A stretch of 64,000 bases of DNA from Candidatus Woesearchaeota archaeon (lineage in GTDB: Archaea > Nanobdellota > Nanobdellia > SCGC-AAA011-G17 > GW2011-AR18), in assembly GCA_018302545.1 (NCBI GenBank), contig JAGVZM010000003.1:40058-104057 (forward strand), given 5' to 3'. The position numbers were made by a program, and so were the translations under genes. Under the pieces are notes generated by a model. That model worked only from the letters and a program-made list of their open reading frames with translations, was not told where the DNA came from and ran no database searches. Positions 2,355 through 60,416 of the stretch are shown one piece after another (the first letter of the stretch is position 1; each line of letters begins with the position of its first letter).

Positions 2355-3700
2355 TCTAGTTCGCAATAACACTCTACTCCTTTAGGTCTGAGTGAATTGC
2401 GAAAATATATTCTCCAATATGTCTCTTATAGAACAATGGTGGACGACACGACAAGGGATACGCGCGTAGAACTTATAAACTAAAATTCCTAAATAATTCT
2501 AATGTTAAAAACTTACAAATTCAGAATATATCCAAACAAAAAACAAGAGATAAAACTATTAGAAACTCTAAATCTTTGTAGGTTCACCTACAATAAACAA
2601 TTAGAACTAAAGATAAACAAATATAAAGAAAATAAAGTAAATTTAACACAATTTGATCTAAATAATAACTTAATAATACTAAAAGAAGAAAATAAAGAAT
2701 TAAAACAAATTCATTCTCAAACATTACAAGATATAAATAAAAGAATTAGTTTAGCTTTTAATGGATTTTACAGAAGATTAAATAAAAGAGAACAAGTAGG
2801 TTTTCCTAGATTCAAAAGTAAATATAGATATGATTCAATAACATATCCTCAATCTGGATTCAAATTAGAAAATCAGCTTTATATTTCTAAAATAGGACAA
2901 ATAAATATTATTAAACACAGAGAAATAGAAGGTAAAGTTAAAACCTTAACAATTAAGAAAACTTCTACAAACAAATGGTTTGCATGTTTCTCAGTAGAAC
3001 AAGAAAGTAAGAGTCACTCTAATCTAACAAATGAAGAAACAATTGGAATAGATCTAGGAATAAATCACTTTTATGCAGATTCTAATGGAAATCTAGTAGA
3101 TAATCCAAAATATCTAAGAAAATCAGAGTTAAAGTTAAAGAAATTACAAAGAAAACATTCTAAAAAGTTAAAAGGTTCTAATAATAGAAATAAATCTAGA
3201 TTAAAACTAGCTAATCTACATGAATTAATAAGTAATCAAAGAAATGACTTCTTACATAAACAATCAAGACAATTAGTTAATAATTATAATACAATAGTAG
3301 TAGAAAGATTACAAATAAGTAATATGACTAAAAACCACTATTTAGCTAAATCTATAAATGATGCTTCTTGGAATAAGTTTCTACAACTACTTTCTTACAA
3401 AGTGGAAGAGACTGGTGGAAAGTTAGTAGAAATAGATCCAAGAAATACTAGTCAATTATGTATTTGTGGCAATAAAGTAGAAAAATCATTAGCTACTAGA
3501 GTGCATAGATGCAATAATTGTGGAATAGAAATGGATAGAGATCTTATGTCTGCTTTGATTATTAAGGAAAAGGGAATAAATGATTTTAGTATTATTACCG
3601 TAGGAACTACGGGAATTCAAGCCTGTCAGAGAACTTCAATAGAAGTTCAGTGAAGCAGGACGCTCGGTCCCTTTAGGGCCGAGTAGTTCACATAAAAAGA
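2355..3700 (+). mobile_element. IS200/IS605-family insertion sequence, TnpB-only (IS1341-like), about 1.35 kb
   Basis: Left-end hairpin TTCGCAAT(2360-2367)...ATTGCGAA(2396-2403). Right-end hairpin CTCGGTCCCTTTAGGGCCGAG (3663-3683). Both ends share the motif CCTTTAGGnCnGAGT. The ends are GC-richer than the background. Confidence 0.65.
2502..3653 (+). CDS. tnpB: TnpB (OrfB), RNA-guided nuclease of IS200/IS605 family
   Basis: N-terminal YKFRIYPNKKQ motif. RuvC-like segments (IGIDLGI, VVERLQIS). C-terminal zinc finger CICG...CNNCG. Confidence 0.85.
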   Translation: MLKTYKFRIYPNKKQEIKLLETLNLCRFTYNKQLELKINKYKENKVNLTQFDLNNNLIILKEENKELKQIHSQTLQDINKRISLAFNGFYRRLNKREQVGFPRFKSKYRYDSITYPQSGFKLENQLYISKIGQINIIKHREIEGKVKTLTIKKTSTNKWFACFSVEQESKSHSNLTNEETIGIDLGINHFYADSNGNLVDNPKYLRKSELKLKKLQRKHSKKLKGSNNRNKSRLKLANLHELISNQRNDFLHKQSRQLVNNYNTIVVERLQISNMTKNHYLAKSINDASWNKFLQLLSYKVEETGGKLVEIDPRNTSQLCICGNKVEKSLATRVHRCNNCGIEMDRDLMSALIIKEKGINDFSIITVGTTGIQACQRTSIEVQ

Positions 3701-11595: not shown

Positions 11596-11681
11596 AGCCT
11601 CTGACGGGATTTGAACCCGCGATCTCCGCCTATTTAGACTATTTTACCAAGGCGATGCTCTACCAACTAAGCCACAGAGGC
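11596..11681 (-). tRNA. tRNA-Thr(GGU) with 13-nt intron at position 37/38. No encoded CCA.
   Basis: Manual fold gives acceptor GCCUCUG/CAGAGGC, D-arm with G18G19, anticodon stem UCGCC/GGCGG, loop UUGGUA|A, T-arm GCGGG-UUCAAAU-CCCGU and discriminator U. Confidence 0.85.
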
Positions 11682-11702: not shown

Positions 11703-12656
11703 TTATCTAAATAGTTTTGCATATCCTGCAGCAATCCTATTTTCCAACCCTAAATTTTTTGGGGAGAAACTATGAGGCAACCATTCATTAGTATCTGTTT
11801 TAAAAGTTTGTATAGATCCATCATTTCCAACATTAATAATATAAACAGGTAAAGGTTCTCCAGATTTTTCATTCAAAGATTGTATTGCTTCAGCAAATTC
11901 TAAAGCATGTTGTCTATCTTTATACATTACATTAGGAATACTCCCACTAGAAACAACAACTATCTCTTTTACATATCTTCTACTAGAATCATTACTCCCA
12001 TCCCTAAAATTACAGATAGCAGCAGAAATTGGTAGTTCTGGATGATAAGCAACATCTCCTCTAAAACTTCCTCTAAAAAGATTACCATTTTCACATACAA
12101 TAACTGCCCCATAGATTTTAGGACTAGATTCTGTTAAATAAATATCATAAGCACTTTGCTCAGCAAAGATAGCTTGTTTTATAGCATCAAGTCTTGATTC
12201 TTCTCCAATTACTTCTGTAAAATTAGATTTAAAATAGGCATTACCAGGAACAAGTACAGCAGTACCACCCTCTCTTGGAGCATTAATAATTACTAAATTA
12301 GCTAAATCAGTATATTGTTTTATAGCATCTCTACAATTACCGCAAGGATTTGGAATTTCATTACCGCCTAATCCTACAAATGCAATTATTTGAATAGAAT
12401 CTTCACTTCCGAAATTTTCCAATGCAGCAGCAATAACTGCTTCTTCGCCATGAGTCATTCCACTAGATATTCCTATCTCATGATTAGAACCTGCAACTAT
12501 ATTTCCATTTTTTGTGACTGCTCCTGTATTTACATGATATCCTGATTGAATAGGAGTAGCCTTAGATGTTAAAGCAGCCTCTAATGCTAGTAGCCATTTT
12601 GGATCTATATCCATTTTATCTTTATTTAAACCATTTATAAAATTCCATTTTGACAT
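11703..12656 (-). CDS. cdd: Cytidine deaminase, dimeric E. coli Cdd-like type (catalytic N-domain plus degenerate C-domain)
   Basis: HGEE and PCGNCRD zinc motifs in the first domain. The second domain lacks PCxxC. About 317 aa, GC-richer. Confidence 0.6.
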   Translation of the reverse strand: MSKWNFINGLNKDKMDIDPKWLLALEAALTSKATPIQSGYHVNTGAVTKNGNIVAGSNHEIGISSGMTHGEEAVIAAALENFGSEDSIQIIAFVGLGGNEIPNPCGNCRDAIKQYTDLANLVIINAPREGGTAVLVPGNAYFKSNFTEVIGEESRLDAIKQAIFAEQSAYDIYLTESSPKIYGAVIVCENGNLFRGSFRGDVAYHPELPISAAICNFRDGSNDSSRRYVKEIVVVSSGSIPNVMYKDRQHALEFAEAIQSLNEKSGEPLPVYIINVGNDGSIQTFKTDTNEWLPHSFSPKNLGLENRIAAGYAKLFR

Positions 12657-12737: not shown

Positions 12738-14159
12738 TTAACCAGCAATCATATATAATCTCTCTCTATATTCAGCGCCTTTACCATCTCTATTAATTTT
12801 ATTTCTTAACTTCCTTAAAGCTTTATAATAATTTTGTTCTACTGCTTGACGGCTTATACCCCATGAACTAGCTATATCAACAAAACTTTCTTTTTTTCCA
12901 GAAAAACCAATTTTTCTCAAAAGTGCATCCCTTTGTCTTTTAGTTAGTTTAGATTCACCCATTAATAATTGAAGATCTGCTCTCAAAGCAAATCTTTCCT
13001 GTCTTAAAAATGATTCTTCTAAATCTACTGAGAATTTCTCATCTTCTAATAATTCAGAGTAGTCCTCTCCATCTTCATTAGACTGAGCATGTATACTGCT
13101 TGTTTTTGGCATCTCTAATAAAACAGTTTCTATTATTTTACATTCTTTAGCAATAACCTCTGATAATGAACCTTCAAAACCATTAAGGTTAGATCCACTT
13201 TCTTTTAGTTTACCAATTAAACCTTCAAAAGTATCACTTTTTTTCCTATCTCTTTTTAATTTTTTAGCTATTTGATGTTCTAAAGATCTTATTGCAACTT
13301 CTTGTTCAGAAGGATCCCTACGTAATTCTTCACTCAATTCTTTTTTAACTCTTTTAATCTTATTATATTTTATACTCCTATCATTAGGTACTCTTATAGT
13401 CCCACTTTGATCTTTTGATCCCCGTATCATATTCCCTCTAATCCTATGCTCTGCATAAGTAAGAAATCTTAAACCAGACCTATGATCATAGAGTTCTACA
13501 GCTCTTTCTAATCCTAAATTTCCTTCTTGAATAGCATCTAAAAGAGATAAGCCCCTTCTTCGTCTTCCATGAGCGAGAGGCACAACTAGATGTAGATTAC
13601 CTTCTATCAACTTACTCTTTATCCCCCTATACATATAAAGATTTTCTTCAATTCCATCTTTGACACTTTTAAACTCTGAATAATCTCCATCCTGAATAAC
13701 ACTTCTAAGATCTGAAGCTGCTTTTCTAATCACAATTGGAGGAATCTCATTAAAGAATCCTCTATATACTTCTTCAGATTTTTCATCACCAATTAGAGCT
13801 TCCATTAATCTTCTATAAGGATGTTTTTCAGGCAAGGAACCAAAACCATCACTTTCAAAATTTTTAATTTGTTCTTTAGAAAATAAACGCGTTTTTGAAG
13901 TTCCCCTATAACTTAAATAGTGTGGAACTAACAAGTACATTCCTGTTCTTCTTGAATAAACTCCTGTTGCTGAATAAGGGAATACTTGTAATTCTGTTGT
14001 AACAAGATAAGAAGCTAAATTATCATGAACAGCTGTTAACTCACCAACAATTCTTCTTTCATCACACTCATCGATCTTAGGTGTTTTAGCAATATTCCTT
14101 AAATATATTGTTTCTGCACTAAGTCCATTATCTGTATTATTTTTATTTTGTTTTTTCAT
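12738..14159 (-). CDS. RNA polymerase sigma-70 family factor (regions 1.2, 2, 3 and 4 all present)
   Basis: Region 2 GLSLLDAIQEGNLGLERAVELYDHRSGLRFLTYAEHRIRGNMIRGSKDQSGTIRVP versus the RpoD consensus [56 protein letters not shown]. Region 4 HTH LTKRQRDALL...ISRQAVEQ. Confidence 0.8.
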   Translation of the reverse strand: MKKQNKNNTDNGLSAETIYLRNIAKTPKIDECDERRIVGELTAVHDNLASYLVTTELQVFPYSATGVYSRRTGMYLLVPHYLSYRGTSKTRLFSKEQIKNFESDGFGSLPEKHPYRRLMEALIGDEKSEEVYRGFFNEIPPIVIRKAASDLRSVIQDGDYSEFKSVKDGIEENLYMYRGIKSKLIEGNLHLVVPLAHGRRRRGLSLLDAIQEGNLGLERAVELYDHRSGLRFLTYAEHRIRGNMIRGSKDQSGTIRVPNDRSIKYNKIKRVKKELSEELRRDPSEQEVAIRSLEHQIAKKLKRDRKKSDTFEGLIGKLKESGSNLNGFEGSLSEVIAKECKIIETVLLEMPKTSSIHAQSNEDGEDYSELLEDEKFSVDLEESFLRQERFALRADLQLLMGESKLTKRQRDALLRKIGFSGKKESFVDIASSWGISRQAVEQNYYKALRKLRNKINRDGKGAEYRERLYMIAG

Positions 14160-16085: not shown

Positions 16086-18674
16086 TCATTTTAACAAATC
16101 TACATCATGATGTCTGCTTTCTTTCATTCCAGCACCAGTAATCCTAATAAACTCTGCATTTTTCCATAACTCATTAATACTCTTAGATCCACAATAACTC
16201 ATCCCACTTTTCAATCCACCAATTAATTGGTAAATAACTTCTGTAACTTTCCCTCTATAAGGAATAGTCCCCTCAACGCCTTCAGGAACAACATCACTTA
16301 TGTCTGCATCATCTTTACCACTTTCTCTTTCTTTCTTACTTTTATTTGCACCAAAACCAGCCATTCCCCTATAAATTTTATATTTCCTTCCTTCCTTTAT
16401 TATTGTTTGTCCAGGACTTTCATCAGTTCCTGCTAACATATTTCCTAACATAACTGTAGAAGCTCCAGCTGCTAAAGCCTTAACAATATCTCCAGATTGT
16501 TTAATTCCACCATCAGCAATAACTGTAATTCCCACTTCATTCGCAACTTTAGCAGAATCCATAACAGCCGTTAATTGAGGCACACCACAACCAGTCTGAA
16601 TTCTAGTTATACAAATTGAATTATGAACTATTGCATTATTTGCTATAAAACTATGAGTAGGACAATCTATTTCCAAATCATAAACTTTAACACATAAATC
16701 TGTTTTTTCATTTTTTAATAATTTTACAACTTGATAATCTTCAGATAATCTTTTTTCTCCTGTATTTATTATTTCAGAAATATAACTTTGGCTAAAATTA
16801 TCCAAATTAGCATTTTTCAAATTACCTTTACTAATTTTCTTTTTTTGATTATTTGGAAATACACCTTTTAATAAATAGTGAACAATATTAAATAATTCTA
16901 TTAATTTTATTGAAGTATTTGAAAATCTTATTCTTCCCCTTTCTTCTATATTTCCATCTGTATCAATTAAACCATCTAAAATACCTTGCAAATATTCTCT
17001 ATTATTAATTAAATATTTTTGTGGTAATTCTTTATTTTTCTTTTTTCCAAAAGATTGTAAAAAATCTGAAAACGGTTTATAATATAAAATAACTTGAATT
17101 ATATTCTCTTTATATGTTACTTTACATTCTTTATTAAAGATATTTATTATAAATTTCATTAATTTATTAACTTTATCAATTTCATGCTTCCCAAAATACC
17201 ATCTAACAGAACCAACACGAGAATTTTTCTTTGAAATGCCGCTATGTGAAGACCCATCACCTAAAAATGTTCCAAAAATATAACCTAATTCATAACAAGG
17301 TTCAAGACTTACATCATTTAGATATTTATATCGAATTATCCAATTACCCCCAACTCTTTTTTTCAAATTAATTTTAAAATATTGTTCTAGTTCAAACTTT
17401 ATTTCTCTAGGAATTAATAAAACATCTTGTCTAAAATCTTTTACTTCTTTCCACTTGTATTTTGAAGCTTTAGGAATTGTTTTGCTTTGTTTTTGTAATA
17501 ATCTTACATAACCCCTACTTTGTATAGTTTCAATTGAAGAAGTATTCAAGTCTCCTACCCAATACCTATGTTCTGGAGTTACATGGGTTTCTTCATAAAA
17601 TATAGAGTTTCTAATTTTTCTAACTTCTTTAATTCCAGTACAAAATGCTTTTTTAACATTCACAGGTTCTCCATTCTTATTTATTACTCTTTCACCAGCC
17701 TTAATTTCTTCAATATTTTTATAAATTCCATTAGACATTAATACCCTAGTTCCTGCAGCAAAACAGCCCCCTCCAACTCCGACCTTAATACAATCTGCTC
17801 CCGCATTAATTAAATCTAAAGTTCCTTCAGCTGTAGCAACATTTCCAGCAATTATTTGAACATCTCCAAATCTATCTTTAATATTTTTTATAGTAGAAAG
17901 AGTCATATCATGATGTCCATGCGCAACATCTATACAAAGAACATCACATCCAACCTTAATTAAAGCTTCAGTTCTATCCAAATAATCTCCTTTAACCCCA
18001 ACAGCAGCACCAACTAATAATCTCCCTTTCTTATCTTTAGTAGCCAGAGGATGTTTCTCTCTATTAGTTATATCCTTAGCAGTAATTAACCCTTTTAAAA
18101 TTCCTTTACTATCAATTAAAGGAAGTTTCTCAATTTTATTTTGCTTTAATATTTCTTTTGCATTTTCAATATCTTTATTTATGTCACCAATAATTGATTT
18201 TTCTTTTGGAGTCATCAAATCTTTAATTTGTTTTAATAAATTGTCCTCAAACATCATATCTGTGTTTGTTAAAATTCCCACATATCTTCCAACATTATCT
18301 GTAATGGGAATTCCTGTAATATTTTTATCCTGCATTAAAATTTTAGCATCTTTTAAATTATGTTCTGGAGTTAAAGTATAAGGATTCTCTATTACAATTG
18401 CTTCTGATCTTTTAACTTTTAAAATTTCTTTAACTTGGTCGTCTATAGTTAAAAATCTATGAATAATTCCAAGACCCCCTTGTCTTGCCATTTCAATTGC
18501 CATTGCACTTTCCGTAACAGTATCCATATTGGCGCTTATTATAGGCATATTTAGTTTAATTTTATTAGTTAAAAAAGAACTTATATCAACATTTTTTCTA
18601 GAATATATATTGGAAAGTTTAGGAACTAATAAAACATCATCATAAGCTAATGCCTCTCTTATTTCATTATTCAT
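16086..18674 (-). CDS. guaB: Inosine-5'-monophosphate dehydrogenase containing an in-frame intein
   Basis: N-extein carries IMPDH and CBS domains. Catalytic loop VGVGGG|SICITR is split by 382 aa starting with Cys and ending HN. The intein holds two LAGLIDADG blocks. Confidence 0.9.
16620..17765 (-). other. Intein (382 aa) with LAGLIDADG homing-endonuclease domain, inserted at the IMPDH catalytic-Cys loop
   Basis: N-terminal Cys1 (CFAAGTRV). C-terminal ...IVHN with +1 Ser. Endonuclease blocks [13 protein letters not shown] and [14 protein letters not shown]. Confidence 0.8.
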
Positions 18675-23737: not shown

Positions 23738-24943
23738 TTATTCTAATTGATTAAATCTTCCATTATACCTATTATCCCCATAACTAGCACCATCAAATTT
23801 TAAATCCCTTAAACAAACGCTTCTGTAAAATACTTCTCTGCCTAAATCTTCAGCACCACCAACAACTTCAATTTCTCCTTCAAAAGGAGCAGGAATACTA
23901 CTCTTACCTTTAATATGTATCATTCTTTGACTCTCTGTAGATGGGTGATTCTTACAATCAACACAGATACCATACATAACTTCAACTTCATCAGCTAAAC
24001 ACATCAAAGCGCTTGTTTCACCAAACCTTTTTCTATTGTAAGTTCTAGCTAATCCAAACACAACAATATCATATCCTTCAGATAATAAATTATGTACAGG
24101 CATATAAAGACCTTTAAGAGGTTCATCTTTTAAACCGATAAATTGAGATTCATCAATAAACACAGTTTTAACATTAGGATTTCTAATTACTCTATCGTAA
24201 ACCTCTTGTCCATTTGTAACCCCTATAGAATCAAATTCAGCCCTATCATGTGTTGCACATTTTCCTGTTTCAGAATACCTATTATCAGCTGCATAATTAA
24301 AAACCATAAATTCATTTTGTCTTAATTCTTCTTCAGCAACTAAATCTCCTAAAGTGGTTGTTTTTCCAACATACATCGGACCTGTTTTTACCATTAATTT
24401 TCCATGTCTTGGCCTTCCACCTTGTTTTGAAAAATGAGTAACACACCTAGGCTCATAATCTCTATCAATTTTAATACTTCTTCCAGCAGGAAGTTCACAA
24501 AAACCATCACCACATATAGCTTTCAAAACCTTAACATCATCAGAAATAGCCATTAAATCTGCCATAGAACCATAAGGCCAACCTTCTGAATCTAAATTTA
24601 AACCATAACCTATAACATTCCTGCCACTTCTAACTAAAGAATCAACTAAATCGACTATTCCTTCCTCCTTTTTAAAATGAGAAATTCCAGAGATTAGTAT
24701 CGCTCTAGTTTCATCAGTAATCAGTTCTGCAATTCCATTAGGATGTTCTAAAACATAGGCTTCATGACCTCCAATTTTACCAGGACTTCCAACATCATCC
24801 ATGGGATGTTTAACAACTAAAAAATTACCATTATGCTTGAAACCACTTGCTCTTGCAGAATTTAGAACTCTTACAGCATGGAATGTTTTTCTGGATTTAA
24901 CCGGACCAGAAAATAAAGTAAATTTCGCTAGTTTATAGGGCAA
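23738..24943 (-). CDS. tdk: Tandem-duplicated thymidine kinase (TK1 type). The N-terminal copy has a degenerate P-loop.
   Basis: C-terminal half has GPMYVGKTT, FIDESQF and a CxxC ribbon. N-terminal half is a TK-like fold with GPVKSRKT. Confidence 0.7.
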   Translation of the reverse strand: MPYKLAKFTLFSGPVKSRKTFHAVRVLNSARASGFKHNGNFLVVKHPMDDVGSPGKIGGHEAYVLEHPNGIAELITDETRAILISGISHFKKEEGIVDLVDSLVRSGRNVIGYGLNLDSEGWPYGSMADLMAISDDVKVLKAICGDGFCELPAGRSIKIDRDYEPRCVTHFSKQGGRPRHGKLMVKTGPMYVGKTTTLGDLVAEEELRQNEFMVFNYAADNRYSETGKCATHDRAEFDSIGVTNGQEVYDRVIRNPNVKTVFIDESQFIGLKDEPLKGLYMPVHNLLSEGYDIVVFGLARTYNRKRFGETSALMCLADEVEVMYGICVDCKNHPSTESQRMIHIKGKSSIPAPFEGEIEVVGGAEDLGREVFYRSVCLRDLKFDGASYGDNRYNGRFNQLE

Positions 24944-25111
24944 TACAGGTATGATCTTAATTCACCTCTCTCGAATTAATTTGAGATTTTTACTCAAACA
25001 AAATTGAGATAATGAGTTTATTAATAAACTTTACTTATGTTAAAAAATATAAAAAGAATTTTAATTCAAAAATCCAAAAATTAATTAAACCTTTGCAAAT
25101 TATTTTAATAA

Positions 25112-26893
25112 ATGAGAAAAGTATTAGCTATTGTAGAAAAAGACAAATGTCATCCAGATAAATGTCAGCATGAATGTATGAAATATGATCCAATAAATAA
25201 AACAGGGGGAGAAGGATTCCATATTAGTGAAGAAACCAAAAAGGCATGTATAAGCGATTCTGTAGTTATGGAAATGCATAAGATTTCAGCAAAAAAATGC
25301 CCCTTTCATGCAATTCACATTGTTAATCTGCCTGAAAAATTAAAAGAAGATCCAATACACAGTTATGGTTTAAACTCATTCGAGCTTTATTCACTGCCTC
25401 ATGTAAAAGAAAAGACAGTAGTTGGAATAATTGGAAGAAATGGAATTGGAAAATCTTCAGCATTACAATTTTTAACAGGAACTATAAAACCAAATTTAGG
25501 AAATTATCAAAAGCCTCTAAAAGAAAATGAAATAATTGAGAGATATTCAAATTCTTGGGTGGGAGAATATTTCAAAAAATTACTAAATAAACAATTAAAA
25601 ATTGCTTACAAACCTCAGCGTGTGGAGTTGCTCACTTCAATTTACAAAGGATATACTGTAAAAGAATTATTAAGCAAAGTAGATGAAAGAAAAATAATTC
25701 ACACACTATTAAATGATTTAGATATCCCAACAATAGAAAATAGAAAAATAGAAGAATTATCTGGTGGAGAATTACAAAGAGTTGCGATAATTGCAACAGT
25801 AGCTAAAAAAGCTGATGTTTATTATTTTGATGAGCCCTCATCTTTTTTGGATATAACTCATAGGATAAAAGCTGCTAGATTAATAAGATCTTTAGCTGAA
25901 AATTCTTCTGTTGTAGTAGTTGAACATGACTTAGCCACATTGGATTATATATCAGATGAAATCCAAATTGTTTATGGAGAACAAGCATGTTACGGTATAT
26001 TCTCTCAATCTAAAGCAGTAAGAAGAGGTATTAATGAGTATATGGAAGGTTTTCTACCTGATGAAAACATAAAGTTCAGACCATACTCAATAAAATTTGA
26101 AGAGCGCCCCATAGATAAATTTGTCTCACAAGAATTAATTTTAGAATTTCCAGAATTAGAAAAATCATATACATCATTTAAATTAAAAACCTCTCCTGGA
26201 AAATTACACAGAGGAGAAGTATTAACAATTATGGGAGCGAATGGTTTAGGCAAATCTACATTCTTAAAACTACTTTCAGGATTAGAAATTTCAGATAAAG
26301 GAAAATTAGAAAAGGTAAGGATAAGTTATAAACCTCAATACTTAAAAAATGATATTGAGGGTAATGTAGAGGATTATCTCAAGGGAATAGCAGGTTCTGA
26401 ATTCAATTCTTCTTGGTTCAAAGCGAATATTTTAGAAAAACTGAATATACAATCAATTTTACAAAATAAAATTTCTGAACTATCTGGAGGAGAATTACAA
26501 AAAGTTCACATAGCTGCTTGTCTAGCTTGTCCAGACAAAGATATAATAACAATGGATGAGCCTTCTGCTTTTATAGATGTAGAAGATAGATTAAATGTAG
26601 CAGAGATAATTAAGGATTTTGTAATAAACAAAAACATCGCAGCAATAATTGTAGATCATGATATCCAATTTATAGATTACTTAGCAGATTCTATGTTAGT
26701 CTTTGAAGGAACTCCTGCAAAGGAGGGACATGTTTTAGGAACTTTATCTAAAAGAGAAGGAATGAACAAAGTTCTAAAAGATTTAGATATTACTTATAGA
26801 AGAGATAAACAAACTGGTAGACCGCGTATCAATAAACCAGGTTCTCAATTAGATCAAGAACAAAGACATAAAGGGGAACATTACTATATCTAA
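25112..26893 (+). CDS. abcE1: ABCE1 (RNase L inhibitor, RLI), ribosome recycling ATPase with twin ABC domains
   Basis: N-terminal CHPDKC...KCPFHAIHIVNLPE, two Walker A/B domains and signature LSGGELQ. Several Fe-S ligand cysteines are replaced. Confidence 0.85.
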   Translation: MRKVLAIVEKDKCHPDKCQHECMKYDPINKTGGEGFHISEETKKACISDSVVMEMHKISAKKCPFHAIHIVNLPEKLKEDPIHSYGLNSFELYSLPHVKEKTVVGIIGRNGIGKSSALQFLTGTIKPNLGNYQKPLKENEIIERYSNSWVGEYFKKLLNKQLKIAYKPQRVELLTSIYKGYTVKELLSKVDERKIIHTLLNDLDIPTIENRKIEELSGGELQRVAIIATVAKKADVYYFDEPSSFLDITHRIKAARLIRSLAENSSVVVVEHDLATLDYISDEIQIVYGEQACYGIFSQSKAVRRGINEYMEGFLPDENIKFRPYSIKFEERPIDKFVSQELILEFPELEKSYTSFKLKTSPGKLHRGEVLTIMGANGLGKSTFLKLLSGLEISDKGKLEKVRISYKPQYLKNDIEGNVEDYLKGIAGSEFNSSWFKANILEKLNIQSILQNKISELSGGELQKVHIAACLACPDKDIITMDEPSAFIDVEDRLNVAEIIKDFVINKNIAAIIVDHDIQFIDYLADSMLVFEGTPAKEGHVLGTLSKREGMNKVLKDLDITYRRDKQTGRPRINKPGSQLDQEQRHKGEHYYI

Positions 26894-28698
26894 TAACCAA
26901 TTTGTTTTCTTATTGCTTTTAAATGAGGCACCAATGCTTTAGTCCAACTTTCTAAAACACCTTCAACTCTTCCACCAATTAAATCATTTATATCCACAAG
27001 ATTACCTTCAACAATAGACTTATCCTTAACTCGAACTTCTCCATCTGTATAAGTAGCATAAATTAATCCAAAATGATCCTTATCTACTTCTTCATCCTCA
27101 ACATATAAAGTTCCTACTAAGCTTGGTTCTGAATATTTTTCTTCAAACGTAACATCTCCTAAAACTTTATCTCTCAAACAATTAGCAATATAATCTGGCC
27201 CATGAGATCTAGCAACATGACCTCCAACTCCAATAGAGATTTTATCAAATAATCTTTTATCTCCATAATCCTTAATGTCACTAGATCTTCTATAAATAAA
27301 CACCTTATCTGAATTAGTAAATATGAGCATATAATCAATTACTTGCAAGACCTCAGGATCGCCTTCACAATCATATCTAGAATGGAAAAATCCTTTTTCA
27401 CATGTTTTTATTATCTCCCCTCTTTGAGCATCAGAATCTATAGATTCAAAACCAAATCTACCTCTTCTATTATTCAATAAACTCTCTTTCTCTTCAACCA
27501 ATACCAATCTATCTAATTTTCCATGTTCTTTAGCAGCACTTTTATAATCAAAATTAGTAAAATGCTTTGAAACTTTTGGGCCCCTCTGTCCTTGATAACT
27601 AGAACCTATTTTAGATCCATAAACTTTATCTGCATCCACTTCACATCTAAAAACATCTAATACACTTATAGGCATGCCATGTTCTAGTGCAATAGGTTTT
27701 AATTCATCTGATCTTACTTCAAAAACCAAATCTCCTAAGAATCCAGGATCTATAAAACCTGCAAAATGTAACATCCCTTGTATTCCAGTATGGTGTGTTG
27801 CCCTAACTTCAGAGCTTAATGCTGGACCAAACCTTAAAATTTCCGCAGAACTAAATAAATAATATTTTTCAGGTTCAATAACAACTCTTCCATCTTTAGC
27901 AAAAACAGGTTCGAAATAATCTTCAGACACTGACCCATTAGACTTTGATAAGTCAACAACAAAAGGAGGTTGTCTAGCCATTAAACCAACAATCCCAGAG
28001 CTAGACTTTCCTTCAAGATTTAATCTAACAACTAATTCTCCATTATCAATCTTAGCAGGAGTTAATGTTCCTCTTTCATCAGAATAGAGAAGCATAGGAT
28101 TTCTAATATGCTCTTCTATAATCTCCTTGTCATTTAACTTAGAATCTAAACCTTGGAAAAATCTAAGTTGGTTTAAAGTTAATCCTTCTGAAGCTTTTAC
28201 ATTAAATACCATAGGTTGTACTAATAACCATAGATCAGAAACACAACTATCTTCTCTTCCAATTAACTCATCAAAACTTGCGCTGTAATCTACTAATAAC
28301 CTAGTATTCAAAAAATTTCTTCCAGTTGTACTTTTAGGAGAAGATTTTACGCGTTGTCCTTCGCTTAATTTAATTTTTTCATTTAATTTTAATAAATAAG
28401 AATACCCAACTAATAAATGATCATCATCAAGTCTTATCTTTCTCCTTTTTCTCTTCTCTAAATGGAGTAAATGTCTATAAACCGAGTCTTTGCTAGTACC
28501 TTTAAAACCAGTAGCATCTAAAACATAACCATCTCCACTTAAAGTAGGTTCAAAAGAAGCAGGTTGCACTCTTTTTTCTAAAGCAGCACAATTATTTATT
28601 TCTTGAGATCCTTTAAAATTTCCCTCAGGAACAACTAACCTTCCTTCAACAATTAAATTTCTAATATCTTGAGAATTTAAAGCATAACCTCTTGTCAT
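26890..28698 (-). CDS. dCTP deaminase/dUTPase-superfamily protein, long form with extra C-terminal domain
   Basis: N-terminal DIRNLIVEGRLVV and HFAGFIDPGFLGDLVFEV resemble dCTP deaminase motifs. 602 aa. Confidence 0.45.
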   Translation of the reverse strand: MTRGYALNSQDIRNLIVEGRLVVPEGNFKGSQEINNCAALEKRVQPASFEPTLSGDGYVLDATGFKGTSKDSVYRHLLHLEKRKRRKIRLDDDHLLVGYSYLLKLNEKIKLSEGQRVKSSPKSTTGRNFLNTRLLVDYSASFDELIGREDSCVSDLWLLVQPMVFNVKASEGLTLNQLRFFQGLDSKLNDKEIIEEHIRNPMLLYSDERGTLTPAKIDNGELVVRLNLEGKSSSGIVGLMARQPPFVVDLSKSNGSVSEDYFEPVFAKDGRVVIEPEKYYLFSSAEILRFGPALSSEVRATHHTGIQGMLHFAGFIDPGFLGDLVFEVRSDELKPIALEHGMPISVLDVFRCEVDADKVYGSKIGSSYQGQRGPKVSKHFTNFDYKSAAKEHGKLDRLVLVEEKESLLNNRRGRFGFESIDSDAQRGEIIKTCEKGFFHSRYDCEGDPEVLQVIDYMLIFTNSDKVFIYRRSSDIKDYGDKRLFDKISIGVGGHVARSHGPDYIANCLRDKVLGDVTFEEKYSEPSLVGTLYVEDEEVDKDHFGLIYATYTDGEVRVKDKSIVEGNLVDINDLIGGRVEGVLESWTKALVPHLKAIRKQIGY

Positions 28699-28845
28699 GC
28701 TCTTGCATTCAATTTAACTTTTAAATACATTTATATCCAGAAAAAGTTACAACAAAACACTATTAAGGCTACAACTAAAATAGTAATAACAACTAAAAAC
28801 ATATTTTCTATTTAAGAAAATTATTTAAATCATTTCAACATCAGA

Positions 28846-28892
28846 ATACTATATTTTGTGTTTTACTTCAAATAAGACACAATATATTGTGT
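28846..28892 (+). promoter_or_regulatory. Two NrdR boxes. Box 2 ACACAATATATTGTGT (28877-28892) is a perfect palindrome. Box 1 is ATACTATATTTTGTGT (28846-28861). Centres are 31 bp apart.
   Basis: Match to the NrdR-box consensus acaCwAtATaTwGtgt. Lies in the divergent intergenic region just upstream of nrdR. Confidence 0.7.
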
Positions 28893-28909
28893 TTACTCTA
28901 GGGTAATAA

Positions 28910-29362
28910 ATGAAATGTATATTTTGTAACAACACAGAAACAAAAGTAGTTGATTCAAGAGAATCAGAAGATTTAACAAGAAGAAGAAGGGAATGTTTAA
29001 TCTGTCAAAAAAGGTTTACAACTTATGAAAGAGCAGAAGATCCGCAAGTATACATAATAAAGAAGGATAATAGAAGAGAATTATACAATAGGGGAAAACT
29101 AAAAGGGGGAATATTAAAAGCCTGTGAAAAAAGACCAATATCATTAGAAAAAATTGATATAGGTATAAACAAGATCGAGTCAAAACTAAGAACCTTAGAA
29201 AATAATGAAATACAAAGTAAGTTGCTTGGTGAAGAAGTAGCAAAAATGTTAAAACAACTTGATAAGGTAGCATACATAAGATTCGCATCTGTTTACAGAG
29301 AGTTTGAGGACATCGGAGACTTTAAAAAAGAAATTCAAATACTATCAAAAAGAAGGGGGTAA
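28910..29362 (+). CDS. nrdR: Transcriptional repressor NrdR (zinc ribbon plus ATP-cone)
   Basis: MKCIFCNNTETKVVDSRESEDLTRRRRECLICQKRFTTYE. Confidence 0.85.
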   Translation: MKCIFCNNTETKVVDSRESEDLTRRRRECLICQKRFTTYERAEDPQVYIIKKDNRRELYNRGKLKGGILKACEKRPISLEKIDIGINKIESKLRTLENNEIQSKLLGEEVAKMLKQLDKVAYIRFASVYREFEDIGDFKKEIQILSKRRG

Positions 29363-29367
29363 TGTAA

Positions 29368-31944
29368 ATGCAAAAAGAAGAAATAAAAAGAGGAGAAGAT
29401 TCTGTTTCTACATTTGAGGAGGGTTTGCAATCTATAGAGGAGTTAGCTACAAAAGGAACTAAAGTTCAGGTTACTGAAAATCAATTAAAGGTTATGCAGA
29501 ATAAATATTTAAGAGGAGATTCTGTTGAATTATGGTTAAGGAGAATAGCAAGAAACATTGCATTGCCAAATGTTTATTATTATTCTAAAGAATTTCAAAA
29601 AGAAATATTAAAAGGAGTAAAACATAAGATTACAATTTCAAATGATGAATATAAATCTGAATCTTTGCTCTTACAATTACCTGAGTTAACCAGAAATGAA
29701 AGAACCCAAAATTTCTATAAGTTTGAAGATAATATTATTAAGTTTGCACAAAAAAATAAAGAAGCAACCAAGATATTAAGATCTAAAGAAGAACAATTTT
29801 TCAAATTTTTATCTAGTTTTGATTTTTTACCAAACTCTCCATGTTTAATGAATGCTGGAAGAGATCTTCAAGGTTTACATGCATGTTATGTAATTCCTGT
29901 AGGAGACTCACTTGAAGAAATTTATTATGCTGTAACTACTATGGCTTTAATTCATCAATCTGGTGGAGGAACAGGCTTTGCATTCTCTAGATTAAGACCA
30001 GAAGGAGATAAAGTTAGATCTACTAAAGGAGTTTCATCTGGTCCTATGTCTTTCATAAAACTCTTTGATACCTCAACAGATGTTGTTCGTCAAGGAGGAA
30101 CTAGAAGAGGTGCAAATATGGGTATTTTACATTACAAACACCCAGATATTAGAAGTTTTATAACCTCAAAATCCAAAGACAAAGGTTTCTTACAGAACTT
30201 TAATATCTCTGTAGGAATAGATGAAGAATTTATTAAAGCAGTTGAAATTGGTGGAGAAATAGACTTAATTAATCCTAGGACTAATCAAGTAGTAAAAAGA
30301 GAAAAAGCAAGAGAGTTATGGGATTTAATGGCAAAATGTGCATGGGAAACAGGAGATCCTGGTTTTGTTGTTATAGATAGAATTAATAATACAAATTCAA
30401 ACCCAACACCAAAATTAGGTCCAGTAGAATCTACTAACCCGTGTGGAGAGCAACCCCTATTACCATGGGAGCCTTGTACTTTAGGTAGTATTAATCTATC
30501 TAATCATGTAACAGAAGAAAAAGGAAAGACAATTGTAGACTATCAAAAATTAGAATACACTTCAAAATTAGCAACAGAGTTTTTAGAGAATGTTGTTGAA
30601 ATGGGCAATTATCCTCTTCCAGAAATTGAAGTAATATCTAAAGGAAATAGACGTATAGGATTAGGAGTTATGGGTTGGGCAGAAATGTTAGTCAAATTAG
30701 AAATCCCCTATGACTCAGAGGAAGCAATAACATTAGCAGAGGAAGTAATGGCATTTATAAATGCTAAAGCTCTAGAAGCTTCTCAAGAACTATCAGAGCT
30801 AAGGGGAGTATTCCCCAATTACAAAGACTCTATCTACGACAAGAAAGGAACCTATTTTAGAGGTCAAGATATAAAAGTAAGAAATTGTGCAACAATAGCT
30901 CCAACAGGCACTATAGCAATAACTGCAGGTCTACAAGGCTCCGGTATTGAACCTTTCTTTGCAATTGCTTACAAAAGATATCAAGCAGAAGCGGTAGATG
31001 CCTTAAAGTTAGGTAAAGAACCAGATTCAAAATATGTTTATTTTGAAGTCATACCTGCCTTTTTGGAAGTAGCAGAAAAACACAATTGGTTCGGAGCAGA
31101 TAAAAATACTTTGCTTAAAAAAATATCAGATAATCACTCTTCTGTAAAAGGAGTTAAAGAAATTCCAGAACATATACAAAAAGTATTTGTGTCTTCTCAT
31201 GACATTCATTGGAAAACACATATAGACCATCAAGCAGCATATCAAAGAAATGTTGATAATGCAGTTTCAAAAACGATTAACATGACTAATTCAGTAACTA
31301 TAGAGGACATACAATCAGCTTACTTATATGCATATAAGTCTGGATTAAAAGGAGTGACTGTTTATAGAGATGGATGTAAAGAAGTACAAGTATTGAATTT
31401 AGCCCAAGACAAAAAAAAACAAGAACAAAAGCAAATACAAAAACAAAAAATAGAAAAAAAAGAAATTGATTATACAAAAGGCGCATCATCTGATTACTAT
31501 GAAATTGAGACAGGTTACGGAACTTTACATGTTAATATAGTTCATGACTCAGATGGTCCTTCAAAAATATTTGCTTCCATACCTCCATTAGGTACAGAGT
31601 TAAGTAATTTGACATGTGTTTTAGGAATATTTATGACTAAAGCATTTGAAGCTGGTTATGATCCTAGAAAAGCAATCAAACACTTAAATTCTGCAAAAGG
31701 AGATAAACCCATTGGATTTGGTGCAAATAGAATTGACTCAATACCTCATGCAATTGCTGTAGCTCTAAAAAGACATTTAGAGAAAACAGGTAAAGTAGGA
31801 GATCAAGAACAAAAAAGATTAACAGAGATGGACATTGGTGTTAAACAAGAACATTGTCCAAAATGTTATTCACCAAATGTAGAATATGTATCTGGTTGTT
31901 CATCTCCAACATGTATAGATTGTGGACATTCAGAATGTAGTTAA
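29368..31944 (+). CDS. nrdJ: Class II (adenosylcobalamin-dependent) ribonucleotide reductase with C-terminal zinc ribbon
   Basis: Active-site NPCGEQPL. C-terminal CPKC...CIDCGHSEC. K/Q-rich low-complexity linker. Confidence 0.85.
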   Translation: MQKEEIKRGEDSVSTFEEGLQSIEELATKGTKVQVTENQLKVMQNKYLRGDSVELWLRRIARNIALPNVYYYSKEFQKEILKGVKHKITISNDEYKSESLLLQLPELTRNERTQNFYKFEDNIIKFAQKNKEATKILRSKEEQFFKFLSSFDFLPNSPCLMNAGRDLQGLHACYVIPVGDSLEEIYYAVTTMALIHQSGGGTGFAFSRLRPEGDKVRSTKGVSSGPMSFIKLFDTSTDVVRQGGTRRGANMGILHYKHPDIRSFITSKSKDKGFLQNFNISVGIDEEFIKAVEIGGEIDLINPRTNQVVKREKARELWDLMAKCAWETGDPGFVVIDRINNTNSNPTPKLGPVESTNPCGEQPLLPWEPCTLGSINLSNHVTEEKGKTIVDYQKLEYTSKLATEFLENVVEMGNYPLPEIEVISKGNRRIGLGVMGWAEMLVKLEIPYDSEEAITLAEEVMAFINAKALEASQELSELRGVFPNYKDSIYDKKGTYFRGQDIKVRNCATIAPTGTIAITAGLQGSGIEPFFAIAYKRYQAEAVDALKLGKEPDSKYVYFEVIPAFLEVAEKHNWFGADKNTLLKKISDNHSSVKGVKEIPEHIQKVFVSSHDIHWKTHIDHQAAYQRNVDNAVSKTINMTNSVTIEDIQSAYLYAYKSGLKGVTVYRDGCKEVQVLNLAQDKKKQEQKQIQKQKIEKKEIDYTKGASSDYYEIETGYGTLHVNIVHDSDGPSKIFASIPPLGTELSNLTCVLGIFMTKAFEAGYDPRKAIKHLNSAKGDKPIGFGANRIDSIPHAIAVALKRHLEKTGKVGDQEQKRLTEMDIGVKQEHCPKCYSPNVEYVSGCSSPTCIDCGHSECS

Positions 31945-50612: not shown

Positions 50613-52142
50613 ATGGGATTATTAAAAAGTTTAGAAAATGCACTCTTTAATGCAGCTGATAAATTAGAGTCAAATCCAGTTGTAAATAGAAGAGCCCTTT
50701 TACAAGGTGCAGCTGCAACTGCAGGAGCTGTAACTTTAATATCAAAACTGAGAGAATCAACAGCAGCAGAACCAAAATGGGATGTTTCTTATATGTGGCA
50801 TACAGATATAGACTCTGTTCTAGATTATCAAGAAGTTATAGGTCAAAAGTTAGGTCCAGAAGTAGAAAAAGAATTGCATGTTGTAAGAGGTAGATCAGGA
50901 AATTACGGTTTAATATATGATAGAAATGGAACTAAAGAAGAGGCAGAAAAAACTGCAAAAAATCACCAGAGAATACTAAAGAGAATAGGTTTAGAAGAAG
51001 CAACACCAATTCAAGATGAAGGATATTCTAAGCTTTATAACGTGGTTTATGGAAAAGGTCCAAATTTACAACAACTAAAGGGAGATTATAAAATTGTATA
51101 TAGAACATTAGGAATAGGAGTAGGAAAAGATTTAGTAATAGAAAGAATAAATGGAGACTACGCCTTAGTTTGGAGAAGAAGAGGAGATCTAGATTCAACA
51201 TTTGATATAGCAAGAGGACACGCACAAATTCTGAAAAAAGAAAATATAGAAGCATCAGTAATAACAGAAAATAATAATCCTACAGTTTTTGGAGAATCAA
51301 GCCATTTAGATGAAGATATTCCAGTAAAAAAATTAAGAGCAAAAAGACAAAAACCAAAACTGAATAATCTAGAATTAGAAATTGAAACCTTAATAGGAGA
51401 TTTAAGAAAAAAAGGATTAATTGAAGAGGATGAAGTAACTGCCTGGTCTGTTTATGATTTCACAACAGGAGAGAAATTAGTTTCTATTAATGAAGATGTT
51501 CCATTACAATGTGCAAGTATGGTCAAACCATTAGTGGCTTTAGCATTTTTCGATCAAGTAAAAAAAGGAAATCTAAGTTACACATCCAAAGCAAGAATGC
51601 ATATGGAAAGAATGATTCAAAAAAGTAGCAATTCTTCTACAAATTGGGTAATTGATAGATTAGGTGGCCCAGGCCAAGTTCAAAAAACATTAAAAGATTG
51701 TTATGGTAATGTTTGTCAGCAAACAAATGTTGTAGAAAGAATACCTGGAGGTGGAAGAACTTATAGAAATAAAGCATCAACACATGATTATAGCAGATTC
51801 TTGTATAATTTATGGAATAATAATTTACCTTACTCACAAGAAATAAAACGATTAATGGCTCTACCAGGAAGAGACAGGGTTTATACAGGAGCAAAAAAAG
51901 TTCCTGAAGGAACACTTGTTTATAATAAAACAGGAAGTACTGCTAGATTATGTGGAGATATGGGAATATTATATGCAAAAGGAAGAGATGGTGAAAGACA
52001 CGCTTATACTGTAGTAGGAGTAATACAAAAACAAAGAAAAACAAGAAGATATTTACCATGGATTGCATCAAGAGGTAATGTAATAAGAGAAGTTTCTAAT
52101 AAGGTCTATGAACATTTAAGACAAGTACATGATTTAGTTTGA
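50613..52142 (+). CDS. Tat-secreted protein with two SPOR-like peptidoglycan-binding repeats and a C-terminal serine beta-lactamase/PBP-like domain
   Basis: RRALLQGAAATAGA twin-arginine signal. SxxK (ASMVKP), SxN (SSN) and KTG (NKTGST) motifs. Confidence 0.6.
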   Translation: MGLLKSLENALFNAADKLESNPVVNRRALLQGAAATAGAVTLISKLRESTAAEPKWDVSYMWHTDIDSVLDYQEVIGQKLGPEVEKELHVVRGRSGNYGLIYDRNGTKEEAEKTAKNHQRILKRIGLEEATPIQDEGYSKLYNVVYGKGPNLQQLKGDYKIVYRTLGIGVGKDLVIERINGDYALVWRRRGDLDSTFDIARGHAQILKKENIEASVITENNNPTVFGESSHLDEDIPVKKLRAKRQKPKLNNLELEIETLIGDLRKKGLIEEDEVTAWSVYDFTTGEKLVSINEDVPLQCASMVKPLVALAFFDQVKKGNLSYTSKARMHMERMIQKSSNSSTNWVIDRLGGPGQVQKTLKDCYGNVCQQTNVVERIPGGGRTYRNKASTHDYSRFLYNLWNNNLPYSQEIKRLMALPGRDRVYTGAKKVPEGTLVYNKTGSTARLCGDMGILYAKGRDGERHAYTVVGVIQKQRKTRRYLPWIASRGNVIREVSNKVYEHLRQVHDLV

Positions 52143-59590: not shown

Positions 59591-59699
59591 ATTATTCTAA
59601 TCTATTATTTCTTTATATATTTTTCGTACTAATTTGGTACGACAATATTTTAAGTATATTATATGTTTACTACTATTAAGTCAAAAATCGGAGGAAAAA

Positions 59700-60416
59700 A
59701 TGAAAGCAGAAAAACAATTTGTAGAAAAACTAAACAAAGCAATGATTGAAGATTTTGTTGCTGTAAACAAAAAAAGAAATCCAATAGCAAAAAACCTTGC
59801 TAAAGATATGAAAGCACTTCAATATGTAATAGGGCAATATTCAATATTTCCAAAAAACATTGTGAGTTTCTTAGAATTTGCTAAAAACAAAGCAAAAGAA
59901 ATGAATTGGAAAAATGTTGAAGAAGAAATAATTAGAAACATGGGTGAAGAATTAGGATCAAAATCTAATGGAATAACACATTATGACCTTTTAGTAAATG
60001 GTGTAAAAGAAGAATTAGGTTTAGATATAAGTAATATCCAAATATCAGAATCAACAAAAAATTTCATAGAATCAATGAAGTCTATCTTATCTAATAAAAA
60101 TCCTTATTATATTATGGGTGCAACTTATGCATTAGAAGATTCAGCAGTTCCTGAGTTAGCTTTAGTTGTAGAATGGGTAAGTCATTTATTCATAGAAATA
60201 ACTGGAAAACCAATTCAAGATAAGACCTTGAAATTTTTCTTTGACATGCACTTAGGTGTATGGGAACCAGGACATGAAGAAGGACTTAGAAATACAGTAT
60301 TTGAAAAAATATCTAGCGAAGAAGATAGAGATAACTTTGAAGCAGGATTCAGAGAAGTACTAAAAACAATGGACTTTTGGTGGAATGGTTTGTATAATGA
60401 AGCAAGTCAAAATTGA
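59700..60416 (+). CDS. Heme-oxygenase-like/TenA-like multihelical protein (iron-containing redox enzyme family?). Start placed at the internal ATG preceded by GGAGG.
   Basis: The all-helical impression is weak. SD GGAGG lies 6 nt upstream of ATG 59700. Confidence 0.35.
   Translation: MKAEKQFVEKLNKAMIEDFVAVNKKRNPIAKNLAKDMKALQYVIGQYSIFPKNIVSFLEFAKNKAKEMNWKNVEEEIIRNMGEELGSKSNGITHYDLLVNGVKEELGLDISNIQISESTKNFIESMKSILSNKNPYYIMGATYALEDSAVPELALVVEWVSHLFIEITGKPIQDKTLKFFFDMHLGVWEPGHEEGLRNTVFEKISSEEDRDNFEAGFREVLKTMDFWWNGLYNEASQN

Follow-up and report, generated by a model that had tools for sequence, protein, structure and literature searches.

The 64-kb window considered here, that is, the whole stretch of DNA that was analysed, comes from a Candidatus Woesearchaeota archaeon, a tiny organism of symbiotic type, and carries on its forward strand, at 50613..52142, a complete open reading frame (ORF) of 509 residues plus a stop codon, exactly where the first-pass annotation of this DNA had placed it. 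The encoded protein is 100% identical to the entry 'serine hydrolase [Candidatus Woesearchaeota archaeon]' of the National Center for Biotechnology Information (NCBI), and the gene already carried this generic annotation, 'serine hydrolase'. The ORF, its signal motif, internal duplication, fold, motif conservation, taxonomic distribution and native composition were computed here (Table 1). What is new is a family with the class A β-lactamase fold that combines a conserved omega-loop glutamate with a private duplicated domain and has copies with a signal of the twin-arginine translocation (Tat) type in at least nine archaeal genomes. The first-pass annotation had described a Tat-exported protein that joins two SPOR-like repeats to a domain resembling serine β-lactamases and penicillin-binding proteins (PBPs). 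That description is essentially correct, with two corrections: the length of the repeat, and the likeness to SPOR domains, which exists only at the level of the fold.

Table 1. Positions in the 64-kb window of the focal gene's domains and motifs and of a second, putatively wall-directed protein.
Feature	Position	Strand	Basis
SLT (lytic transglycosylase) + M23 peptidase protein, 611 residues	21719..23554	-	PF01464 29.4 bits, PF01551 52 bits
Signal region, residues 1-52	50613..50768	+	TIGR01409, RR conservation, helix in the model
Repeat 1, residues 55-138	50775..51026	+	hhalign; models at a predicted local distance difference test score (pLDDT) of 90-96
Repeat 2, residues 139-224	51027..51284	+	Same fold as repeat 1; hhalign and models
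Linker, residues 225-252	51285..51368	+	pLDDT 66-83; Lys/Arg-rich; length variable across the family, large indel region in the alignment
Class-A β-lactamase-fold / penicillin-binding-type serine hydrolase domain, residues 253-509	51369..52139	+	PF13354, Foldseek
S302-M-V-K305, nucleophile Ser and general-base Lys (Ambler S70/K73)	51516..51527	+	S in 63/64, K in 64/64
S338-S-N340, SxN / SDN-loop motif (Ambler 130-132)	51624..51632	+	Alignments, conservation
Omega-like loop, residues 365-389, GNVCQQTNVVERIPGGGRTYRNKAS	51705..51779	+	Conservation; Ambler 166 placed by alignment and model
K439-T-G441, KTG motif on strand β3 (Ambler 234-236)	51927..51935	+	Model, conservation

The catalytic domain and its omega loop

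The C-terminal half of the protein is matched in two stretches by the Pfam profile Beta-lactamase2 (PF13354) with 74.8 bits against a cutoff of 22 (E = 7.9e-21), and its structural model adopts the class A fold, which bears out the proposal of a C-terminal β-lactamase/DD-peptidase domain with SxxK, SxN and KTG motifs. A Foldseek search with the model places PBP-A (2j7v, E = 1.4e-13, template-modelling (TM) score 0.76) at the top, followed by BlaB (2wuq) and LRA-5 (8eo5, E ~1e-12) and only then by TEM-type enzymes, with a TM score of ~0.72 against TEM and related structures. The three motifs follow one another in canonical order on the class A fold. Conservation was counted over 64 diverse full-length representatives of the family, which is the sample behind all such counts below and in Table 1. 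Every motif residue is retained in at least 60 of them (K439 and T440 in 60 each, all others in at least 62), and the catalytic residues are by these counts under strong purifying selection. With regard to spacing, the canonical arrangement is kept in its second half only. The distance from SxN to KTG is canonical (101 residues versus 104), but that from SxxK to SxN is 36 residues versus 60 in TEM, because class A enzymes have ~24-26 more residues in the segment between helix H2 and helices H4/H5. From H4/H5 onward, the domain tracks TEM helix by helix at a constant offset, the GGP motif included. In the NCBIfam models, bla_class_A scores 39.2 bits against a cutoff of 200, and all named bla families remain far below their cutoffs.

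The omega-like loop is, by the same counts, conserved to the same degree as the active site: E375 (nucleotides 51735-51737) is Glu in 60/64 and Asp in two more, with I377 retained in 60, P378 in 57, G381 in 60, Y384 in 63 and N386 in all 64. E375 lies 22 residues past the GGP anchor, where Glu166 of TEM lies 21 residues past it, and in a gap-free alignment it falls on the Glu that was engineered into LRA-5 V166E. When HMMER aligns the sequence with PBP-A and with wild-type LRA-5, positions 166-167 are instead occupied by I377-P378, and I377 stands opposite Leu158 of PBP-A. The residue four positions after E375, corresponding to Asn170 of the ExxLN motif, is not Asn but varies among P, A, S, T and D, and the sole invariant Asn of the loop is N386, at +11. 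PBP-A and LRA-5 carry Leu158 and Val166, respectively, instead of Glu166, and they are not β-lactamases because they lack this general base (PMC11189452, PMC12777564). Introducing Glu at position 166 activates LRA-5 and raises the β-lactamase activity of PBP-A 90-fold (PMC12777564, PMC11189452). On balance, E375 is somewhat more likely than not to be a functional equivalent of Glu166. The placement of E375 at or next to Ambler 166 is what discriminates a hydrolytic DD-peptidase or lactamase from a PBP-A-like enzyme.

Of the known systems, the best match to the catalytic domain in both sequence and structure is PBP-A (Tll2115 of Thermosynechococcus elongatus), a cyanobacterial class-A-like low-molecular-weight PBP (phmmer E = 1.6e-4, profile hmmsearch E = 2.1e-11, besides the Foldseek score above) and an experimentally proven DD-carboxypeptidase/endopeptidase (PMC11189452). 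In both proteins, a PBP domain with the SxxK, SxN and KTG motifs is preceded by an additional N-terminal region. They differ in that identity to the focal domain is only ~19%, in the ~24-26 residues that the focal family lacks between SxxK and SxN, and in the tandem 85-residue module, which is unique to the focal family. At the Glu166 site, PBP-A has Leu158, whereas in the focal family the Ile-Pro that aligns there is preceded, two residues earlier, by the near-invariant Glu. The PBP-A family has further been described as restricted to cyanobacteria (PMC11189452), whereas members of the focal family occur in Woesearchaeota as well as in Desulfobulbales and other bacteria. Next in structural closeness is the group of LRA-5, a metagenomic class A 'precursor' β-lactamase, whose omega loop has the same length when position 166 and the conserved Asp (D392) are aligned without gaps. 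LRA-5, however, is a single domain of 290 residues; it has Val166, lacks a deacylation water and shows negligible activity (PMC12777564), and the residue of the focal family that aligns with V166E is Glu. The class A β-lactamases proper (TEM, SHV, CTX-M) share the fold and the helix order, and the offsets of ASxxK, SxN, GGP and KTG are equal from H4/H5 onward. The focal protein is set apart from them by its low bla_class_A score, the lack of ExxLN, a shortened 86-118 region and an additional N-terminal module of 200 residues.

The export signal and the duplicated N-terminal module

The signal region consists of a long n-region with a predicted helix (residues 2-20), the arginine pair RR26-27 (nucleotides 50688-50693), an h-region rich in Gly, Ala and Thr, and a c-region that ends in STAA. 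The focal protein contains NRRALLQGAAATAGAV, and its residues 24-44 read VNRRALLQGAAATAGAVTLIS. The Tat-type motif N-R-R-A-L-L-Q is followed by GAAATAGAVTLI, and this fits both a motif of the S/T-R-R-x-F-L type and a weakly hydrophobic h-region. When the whole protein is scanned, both the Pfam TAT_signal profile (PF10518, 12.6 bits against a cutoff of 22.7) and TIGR01409 (14.3 against 16.7) fall short, but the isolated N-terminal 55 residues pass TIGR01409 with 18.2 bits over residues 24-44. Across 23 aligned RR-type N-termini of relatives, 11 of which match TIGR01409, the RR pair is the sole invariant position, and in 9/9 identified archaeal copies it is followed by a mildly hydrophobic stretch. 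For the Tat signal of the first-pass annotation, this comparison among relatives carries more weight than the scores, and the focal protein is probably Tat-exported. In the large Desulfobulbales clade the signals are of the ordinary Sec type. Given RR signals in the archaea and Sec-type signals in Desulfobulbales, the family is therefore predicted to be extracytoplasmic in both domains of life, with an export route that differs by clade.

The n-region ahead of the RR pair (residues 1-25, nucleotides 50613-50687) is unusually long, with 25 residues and a predicted helix. Several of the nearest relatives (P0004, P0009, P0011, P0070, P0086) have a similar stretch, of the form L..L....AD.L. Within the Tat signal, this long n-region could serve to bind a chaperone or have a regulatory role.

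Two repeats of ~60 residues had been proposed to follow the signal. A BLASTP comparison of the two N-terminal halves detects no repeat, but hhalign of the family sub-alignments 54-138 and 139-224 pairs them with 99% probability (E = 7e-18) over 78-84 columns. By this evidence the internal duplication is real, although it is seen by profiles only, and its unit is ~85 residues long and not 60. AlphaFold models the full-length protein at a pLDDT of 90.2 and a predicted TM score (pTM) of 0.82, and the N-terminal part alone at a pLDDT of 95.7. In two models with pLDDT 90-96, DSSP assigns each repeat the order β-α-β-β-α-β, a ribonucleoprotein (RNP)/ferredoxin-like fold. This fold is common to ACT, RRM and many other domains.

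The proposal that the repeats resemble SPOR domains was examined at several levels, and it holds for the fold only. SPOR domains show little conservation of sequence; their defining features are the RNP fold together with a conserved Gln and a basic patch on the sheet face that is exposed, and they bind denuded glycans (PMC6895207). The repeats share with them (PF05036; FtsN, DamX, RlpA, CwlC) an RNP-type fold in which a four-stranded sheet is backed by two helices. A Foldseek search of the module against the Protein Data Bank (PDB) returns nothing at E<=0.001. Most of the matches that it lists are tandem ACT/ferredoxin-like pairs with a root-mean-square deviation (rmsd) of >10 Å, and the one well-superposed single domain is the SPOR domain of CwlC (1x60; probability 0.99, TM score 0.65, rmsd 4.4 Å, 22% identity). 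At the level of sequence, none of 29 N-terminal segments of family members matches Pfam SPOR at E<=10, the whole focal protein has no such match at E<=1, and hhalign of the module against an FtsN SPOR profile, itself a narrow one, gives a probability of <1%. Among the 64 representatives, the conserved polar residues of strand β1 are D57/N143 and S59/S145, to which R189 is added; the conserved Gln of SPOR domains is not evident. SPOR domains often occur in tandem or joined to wall enzymes (PMC6895207), but no other catalytic domain was found to carry the module. When 1.84 billion (1.84e9) representative proteins were searched with its profile, 150 were retrieved, and there was no spill-over into proteins outside this enzyme family: 64 of the 150 are at least 400 residues long, and 63 of these 64 bear the same catalytic domain. 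The module is a private accessory domain, absent from Pfam and NCBIfam, and would define a new domain family. We read it as a family-specific domain of the ferredoxin/RNP fold class that is perhaps analogous to SPOR, though not demonstrably SPOR. An ACT domain as the primary reading of the module was rejected, as the rmsd exceeds 10 Å and the protein is extracytoplasmic.

The family also includes variants with one repeat. These are seen among bacterial proteins of ~410-430 residues and in L078, from a Woesearchaeota metagenome-assembled genome (MAG; JBFKKL010000094.1, 251-1660), in which the match starts at residue 142 and an apparently single repeat is preceded by a different, RR-containing N-terminus. 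One protein retrieved by the profile search, P0238 (4172 residues, 11 matched stretches), was considered as a new architecture and rejected, as its match is a spurious one to the coiled coil of a YadA-type adhesin.

Family distribution, proposed function and alternatives

The family is mainly bacterial. It has 533 relatives in species-representative genomes, and a 90%-clustered database gives 1905 matches among the scored candidates. The best 80 of the 533 are mostly from Desulfobulbales, with scattered Eisenbacteria, Myxococcota and Poribacteria and four further Woesearchaeota MAGs. Cultured Desulfobulbales with homologues include Desulfopila, Desulfosediminicola, Desulfogranum, Desulforhopalus and Hydrosulfovibrio. 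The two proteins nearest to the focal one, with 53% and 52% identity, both come from Woesearchaeota, and there are at least nine archaeal copies (from Woesearchaeota or others), the focal gene included. Two of these were identified as archaeal by their context, one beside an archaeal RNA polymerase and the other beside an ATP-dependent DNA ligase, prefoldin and NMD3. In a neighbour-joining tree, a tight clade of Desulfobulbales with Sec signals stands next to a deep, star-like bush of RR-signal proteins in which archaea are mixed with bacterial lineages, and this tree therefore does not resolve the number and direction of transfers between the domains of life. Taken together, this is a family mainly of bacteria (Desulfobulbales) that is long resident in Woesearchaeota. 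In one Desulfobulbales block (L003/L004/L007, with the order PFOR - GntR - VanY - homologue), a divergently oriented VanY-family D,D-carboxypeptidase is encoded directly upstream of the homologue. As a functional link for the whole family this neighbour was rejected, since it is confined to that one synteny block. The gene neighbourhoods are otherwise uninformative.

To our knowledge, the focal archaeon has no murein, and the substrate would therefore be the wall or the muropeptides of bacteria that it lives on or beside. By analogy with PBP-A, the likeliest explanation, to which we give an even chance, is that the focal protein is a Tat-exported DD-peptidase (DD-carboxy/endopeptidase) that acts on bacterial murein. 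In this capacity it would be a low-molecular-weight penicillin-binding-type serine acyl-transferase/hydrolase with a class-A β-lactamase fold. As in other members of the fold family, K305 would activate S302, with S338/N340 and K439-T-G441 assisting. S302 would then attack the D-Ala-D-Ala or D-Ala-meso-diaminopimelate (mDAP) bond of murein stem peptides to give an acyl-enzyme, which would be released by water, possibly activated by E375 of the omega loop. The resulting activity would be that of a DD-carboxypeptidase and/or DD-endopeptidase, like that of PBP-A, and the tandem module would most likely position the enzyme on the sacculus or shape the substrate site. What we infer is which substrate the enzyme attacks, what E375 and the N-terminal module contribute, and what ecological use is made of it. 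Remodelling of the wall of a bacterial partner or prey is a plausible use. The sub-threshold bla_class_A score, which does not mark a bona fide β-lactamase, supports this proposal, as does the VanY neighbour, which provides a link to murein in bacteria, albeit in one Desulfobulbales synteny block. It draws further support from the match to PBP-A, the near-invariant catalytic residues, the export signals and the archaeal context with its SLT-M23 protein, and it agrees with published accounts of woesearchaeal lytic transglycosylases and of secreted archaeal peptidoglycan hydrolases (PMC8204110, PMC9723730, PMC12352652).

Several observations weigh against such a murein-directed function. The family is uncharacterised. 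For none of the known peptidoglycan-binding domains can homology to the module be demonstrated, and sequence and profile searches of PDB sequences with the N-terminal region give no match. The shortened region between SxxK and SxN has no equivalent of the loop around position 105, and substrate specificity may therefore be unusual. The near-invariant E375 is a β-lactamase-like feature that PBP-A and LRA-5 lack. The archaeal loci examined show neither conserved synteny nor wall-related neighbour genes, and the VanY neighbour is missing from the other bacterial loci examined, so that this linkage belongs to one lineage. Finally, the Tat machinery, for which the first-pass annotation had advised a search of the genome, is not found in the window: neither TatA nor TatC is detected within its 64 kb by motif, transmembrane count or Pfam, and an E. 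coli TatA query finds no TatA in 86 kb of other archaeal loci.

The same catalytic features could belong to a genuine β-lactamase, in which S302 would be acylated by β-lactams and E375 would activate the deacylating water, protecting either the archaeon or a bacterial partner in a community. The class A fold with its three intact motifs is what such an enzyme requires, and the conservation of E375, which equals that of the catalytic residues, together with its distance from GGP and its gap-free alignment to a Glu that is known to activate both LRA-5 and PBP-A, points in this direction. Against this stand the scores, as no β-lactamase family model is passed, the missing Asn170 equivalent at E375+4, and the alternative alignment in which I377-P378 occupy positions 166-167 much as Leu158-Pro does in PBP-A. 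The nearest structures are all non-lactamases, and the accessory tandem domain occurs in none of the matched β-lactamase structures. Archaea, moreover, have no β-lactam target (PMC7697635), and antibiotic defence, which had been offered as an ecological role, is for this reason weak. We consider a true β-lactamase decidedly improbable. A different possibility is that the class-A-fold serine hydrolase acts on a non-murein substrate, such as D-amino-acid peptides, esters or exopolymers, or that it is a non-catalytic, BlaB-like sensor of β-lactams or muropeptides, with the ACT/ferredoxin-like tandem serving as a ligand-binding or oligomerisation module. BlaB of Streptomyces cacaoi is indeed among the closest structures, H2 and H4/H5 are joined by a shortened loop, the archaeal neighbourhoods lack wall-related context, and the top Foldseek matches of the module are tandem ACT/ferredoxin-like proteins (GcvR-like 1u8s, the acetohydroxyacid synthase (AHAS) small subunit and the SerB ACT domain), albeit with poor rmsd. 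These ACT-type matches, however, have rmsd >10 Å and E >1e-3; the strong purifying selection on all catalytic residues argues against a non-catalytic role; an export signal is present in every lineage; and the sole close relative that has been characterised experimentally is a murein DD-peptidase (PMC11189452). This set of functions appears unlikely, though not as improbable as the foregoing.

It might also be supposed that the gene is not archaeal at all and that a contaminating, mis-binned or chimeric contig has brought it into the assembly. The family is overwhelmingly bacterial, and the window does contain bacterial-type genes, namely a sigma-70-like gene, dnaK/grpE/dnaJ and the gene for the SLT and M23 domains. 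The same 64 kb, however, encode archaeal markers: a family B DNA polymerase, RLI/ABCE1, TrmB-type regulators, DUF7343 and an IMP dehydrogenase with an intein. The focal gene has a GC content of 0.32 and a GC content at third codon positions (GC3) of 0.12, which match those of the neighbouring genes, and a codon-usage correlation of r = 0.87, where the other genes of the window span 0.80-0.98. A composition like that of its neighbours marks it, therefore, as a long-resident gene that is neither a chimera nor a recent arrival. Eight further archaeal copies, including the two identified by their context, speak for the same conclusion, and bacterial genes, sigma-70 among them, have been documented as a genuine part of woesearchaeal genomes (PMC8204110). 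The gene's composition and the independent archaeal copies led us to reject a chimeric contig, and contamination as a whole is very nearly refuted.

Murein-directed enzymes are already known in DPANN archaea, and a DD-peptidase would be a modest addition to the bacterial-wall enzymes known from these organisms. Lytic transglycosylases have been described from Woesearchaeota and Pacearchaeota (PMC8204110, PMC9723730), and archaea also secrete peptidoglycan hydrolases that kill bacteria; where a signal peptide is recognised in the latter, it is of the Tat type in about one third (PMC12352652). The focal protein resembles these enzymes (Woldo/Danwoldo of Halogranum; the Woesearchaeota/Pacearchaeota transglycosylases) in being of a bacterial wall-enzyme type, in its export signal, which in them is often Tat, and in a murein-free host, but they belong to the glycosidases, amidases or metallopeptidases, in fusion with wall-binding domains that are already known (PMC12352652, PMC8204110, PMC9723730). 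The passages on archaeal wall enzymes that were searched in the same three papers make no mention of a serine enzyme with the PBP/β-lactamase fold. If the proposed function is true, a serine DD-peptidase would join the glycosidases and metallopeptidases proposed for the interaction of DPANN archaea with bacterial walls, and this would support bacterial, and not archaeal, partners or prey for some Woesearchaeota.

For the evolution of β-lactamases, the family provides a natural lineage with the class A fold that is widespread, in at least 533 genomes at species level (cultivable Desulfobulbales included), and that unites PBP-like features with a conserved omega-loop Glu. The engineered PBP-A L158E and LRA-5 V166E try to mimic exactly such an intermediate. 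A survey of 2020 found no class A homologues in archaea (PMC7697635), a published impression that the archaeal copies correct. The family is, for these reasons, a worthwhile biochemical target, especially as cultivable Desulfobulbales carry homologues, without being a categorical surprise. A wider proposal would take the duplicated module of this Tat-exported woesearchaeal DD-peptidase to be an unrecognised, SPOR-analogous murein-targeting domain, would join the enzyme with the SLT-M23 protein into a toolkit to attach to, feed on or kill bacteria, and would see in the E375 family a second natural lineage, besides the cyanobacterial PBP-A, at the boundary between PBPs and class A enzymes. We regard this wider proposal as tentative and, taken as a whole, rather doubtful.

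The SLT-M23 protein and other features of the window

The first-pass annotation had paired the focal protein with an SLT-M23 enzyme as the second of two secreted, murein-directed proteins, and the SLT-M23 gene is present as described (Table 1). It lies 27 kb from the focal gene and is unlinked to it. By association, its product is a possible functional companion of the focal enzyme. It has hydrophobic segments within the N-terminal ~200 residues and no classical signal peptide, and it matches the kind of murein-degrading protein that has been described for Woesearchaeota.

The bacterial-type sigma factor is encoded at 12738-14159 (-) by an ORF of 472 residues that matches Sigma70 regions 2, 3 and 4 (40.9, 23.9 and 22.8 bits). 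The sigma-70 genes of Woesearchaeota are reported as genuine and their role as unknown (PMC8204110). The IMP dehydrogenase gene at 16086-18674 (-), an ORF of 862 residues, is split by the intein, which comprises Hint and LAGLIDADG homing-endonuclease domains. At 11596-11681 (-), Rfam recognises a tRNA with 60 bits that ARAGORN does not call. Its length of 86 nucleotides suggests an intron or an atypical archaeal tRNA. A mobile element is represented at 2502-3653 (+) by an IS605-family OrfB/TnpB-like gene with OrfB_IS605 and Cas12f1-like TNB domains.

A cluster of nucleotide-salvage genes occupies 11703-12656 and 23738-31944 and is consistent with a scavenging lifestyle. It includes an unusually long thymidine kinase ORF of 401 residues, a dCTP deaminase-like protein of 602 residues, a ribonucleotide reductase and a double cytidine/dCMP deaminase. 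Downstream of the focal gene, at 59634-60416 (+), a DUF3865 / haem-oxygenase-like iron enzyme (198.6 bits) of unknown function is encoded beside a TrmB-family regulator.

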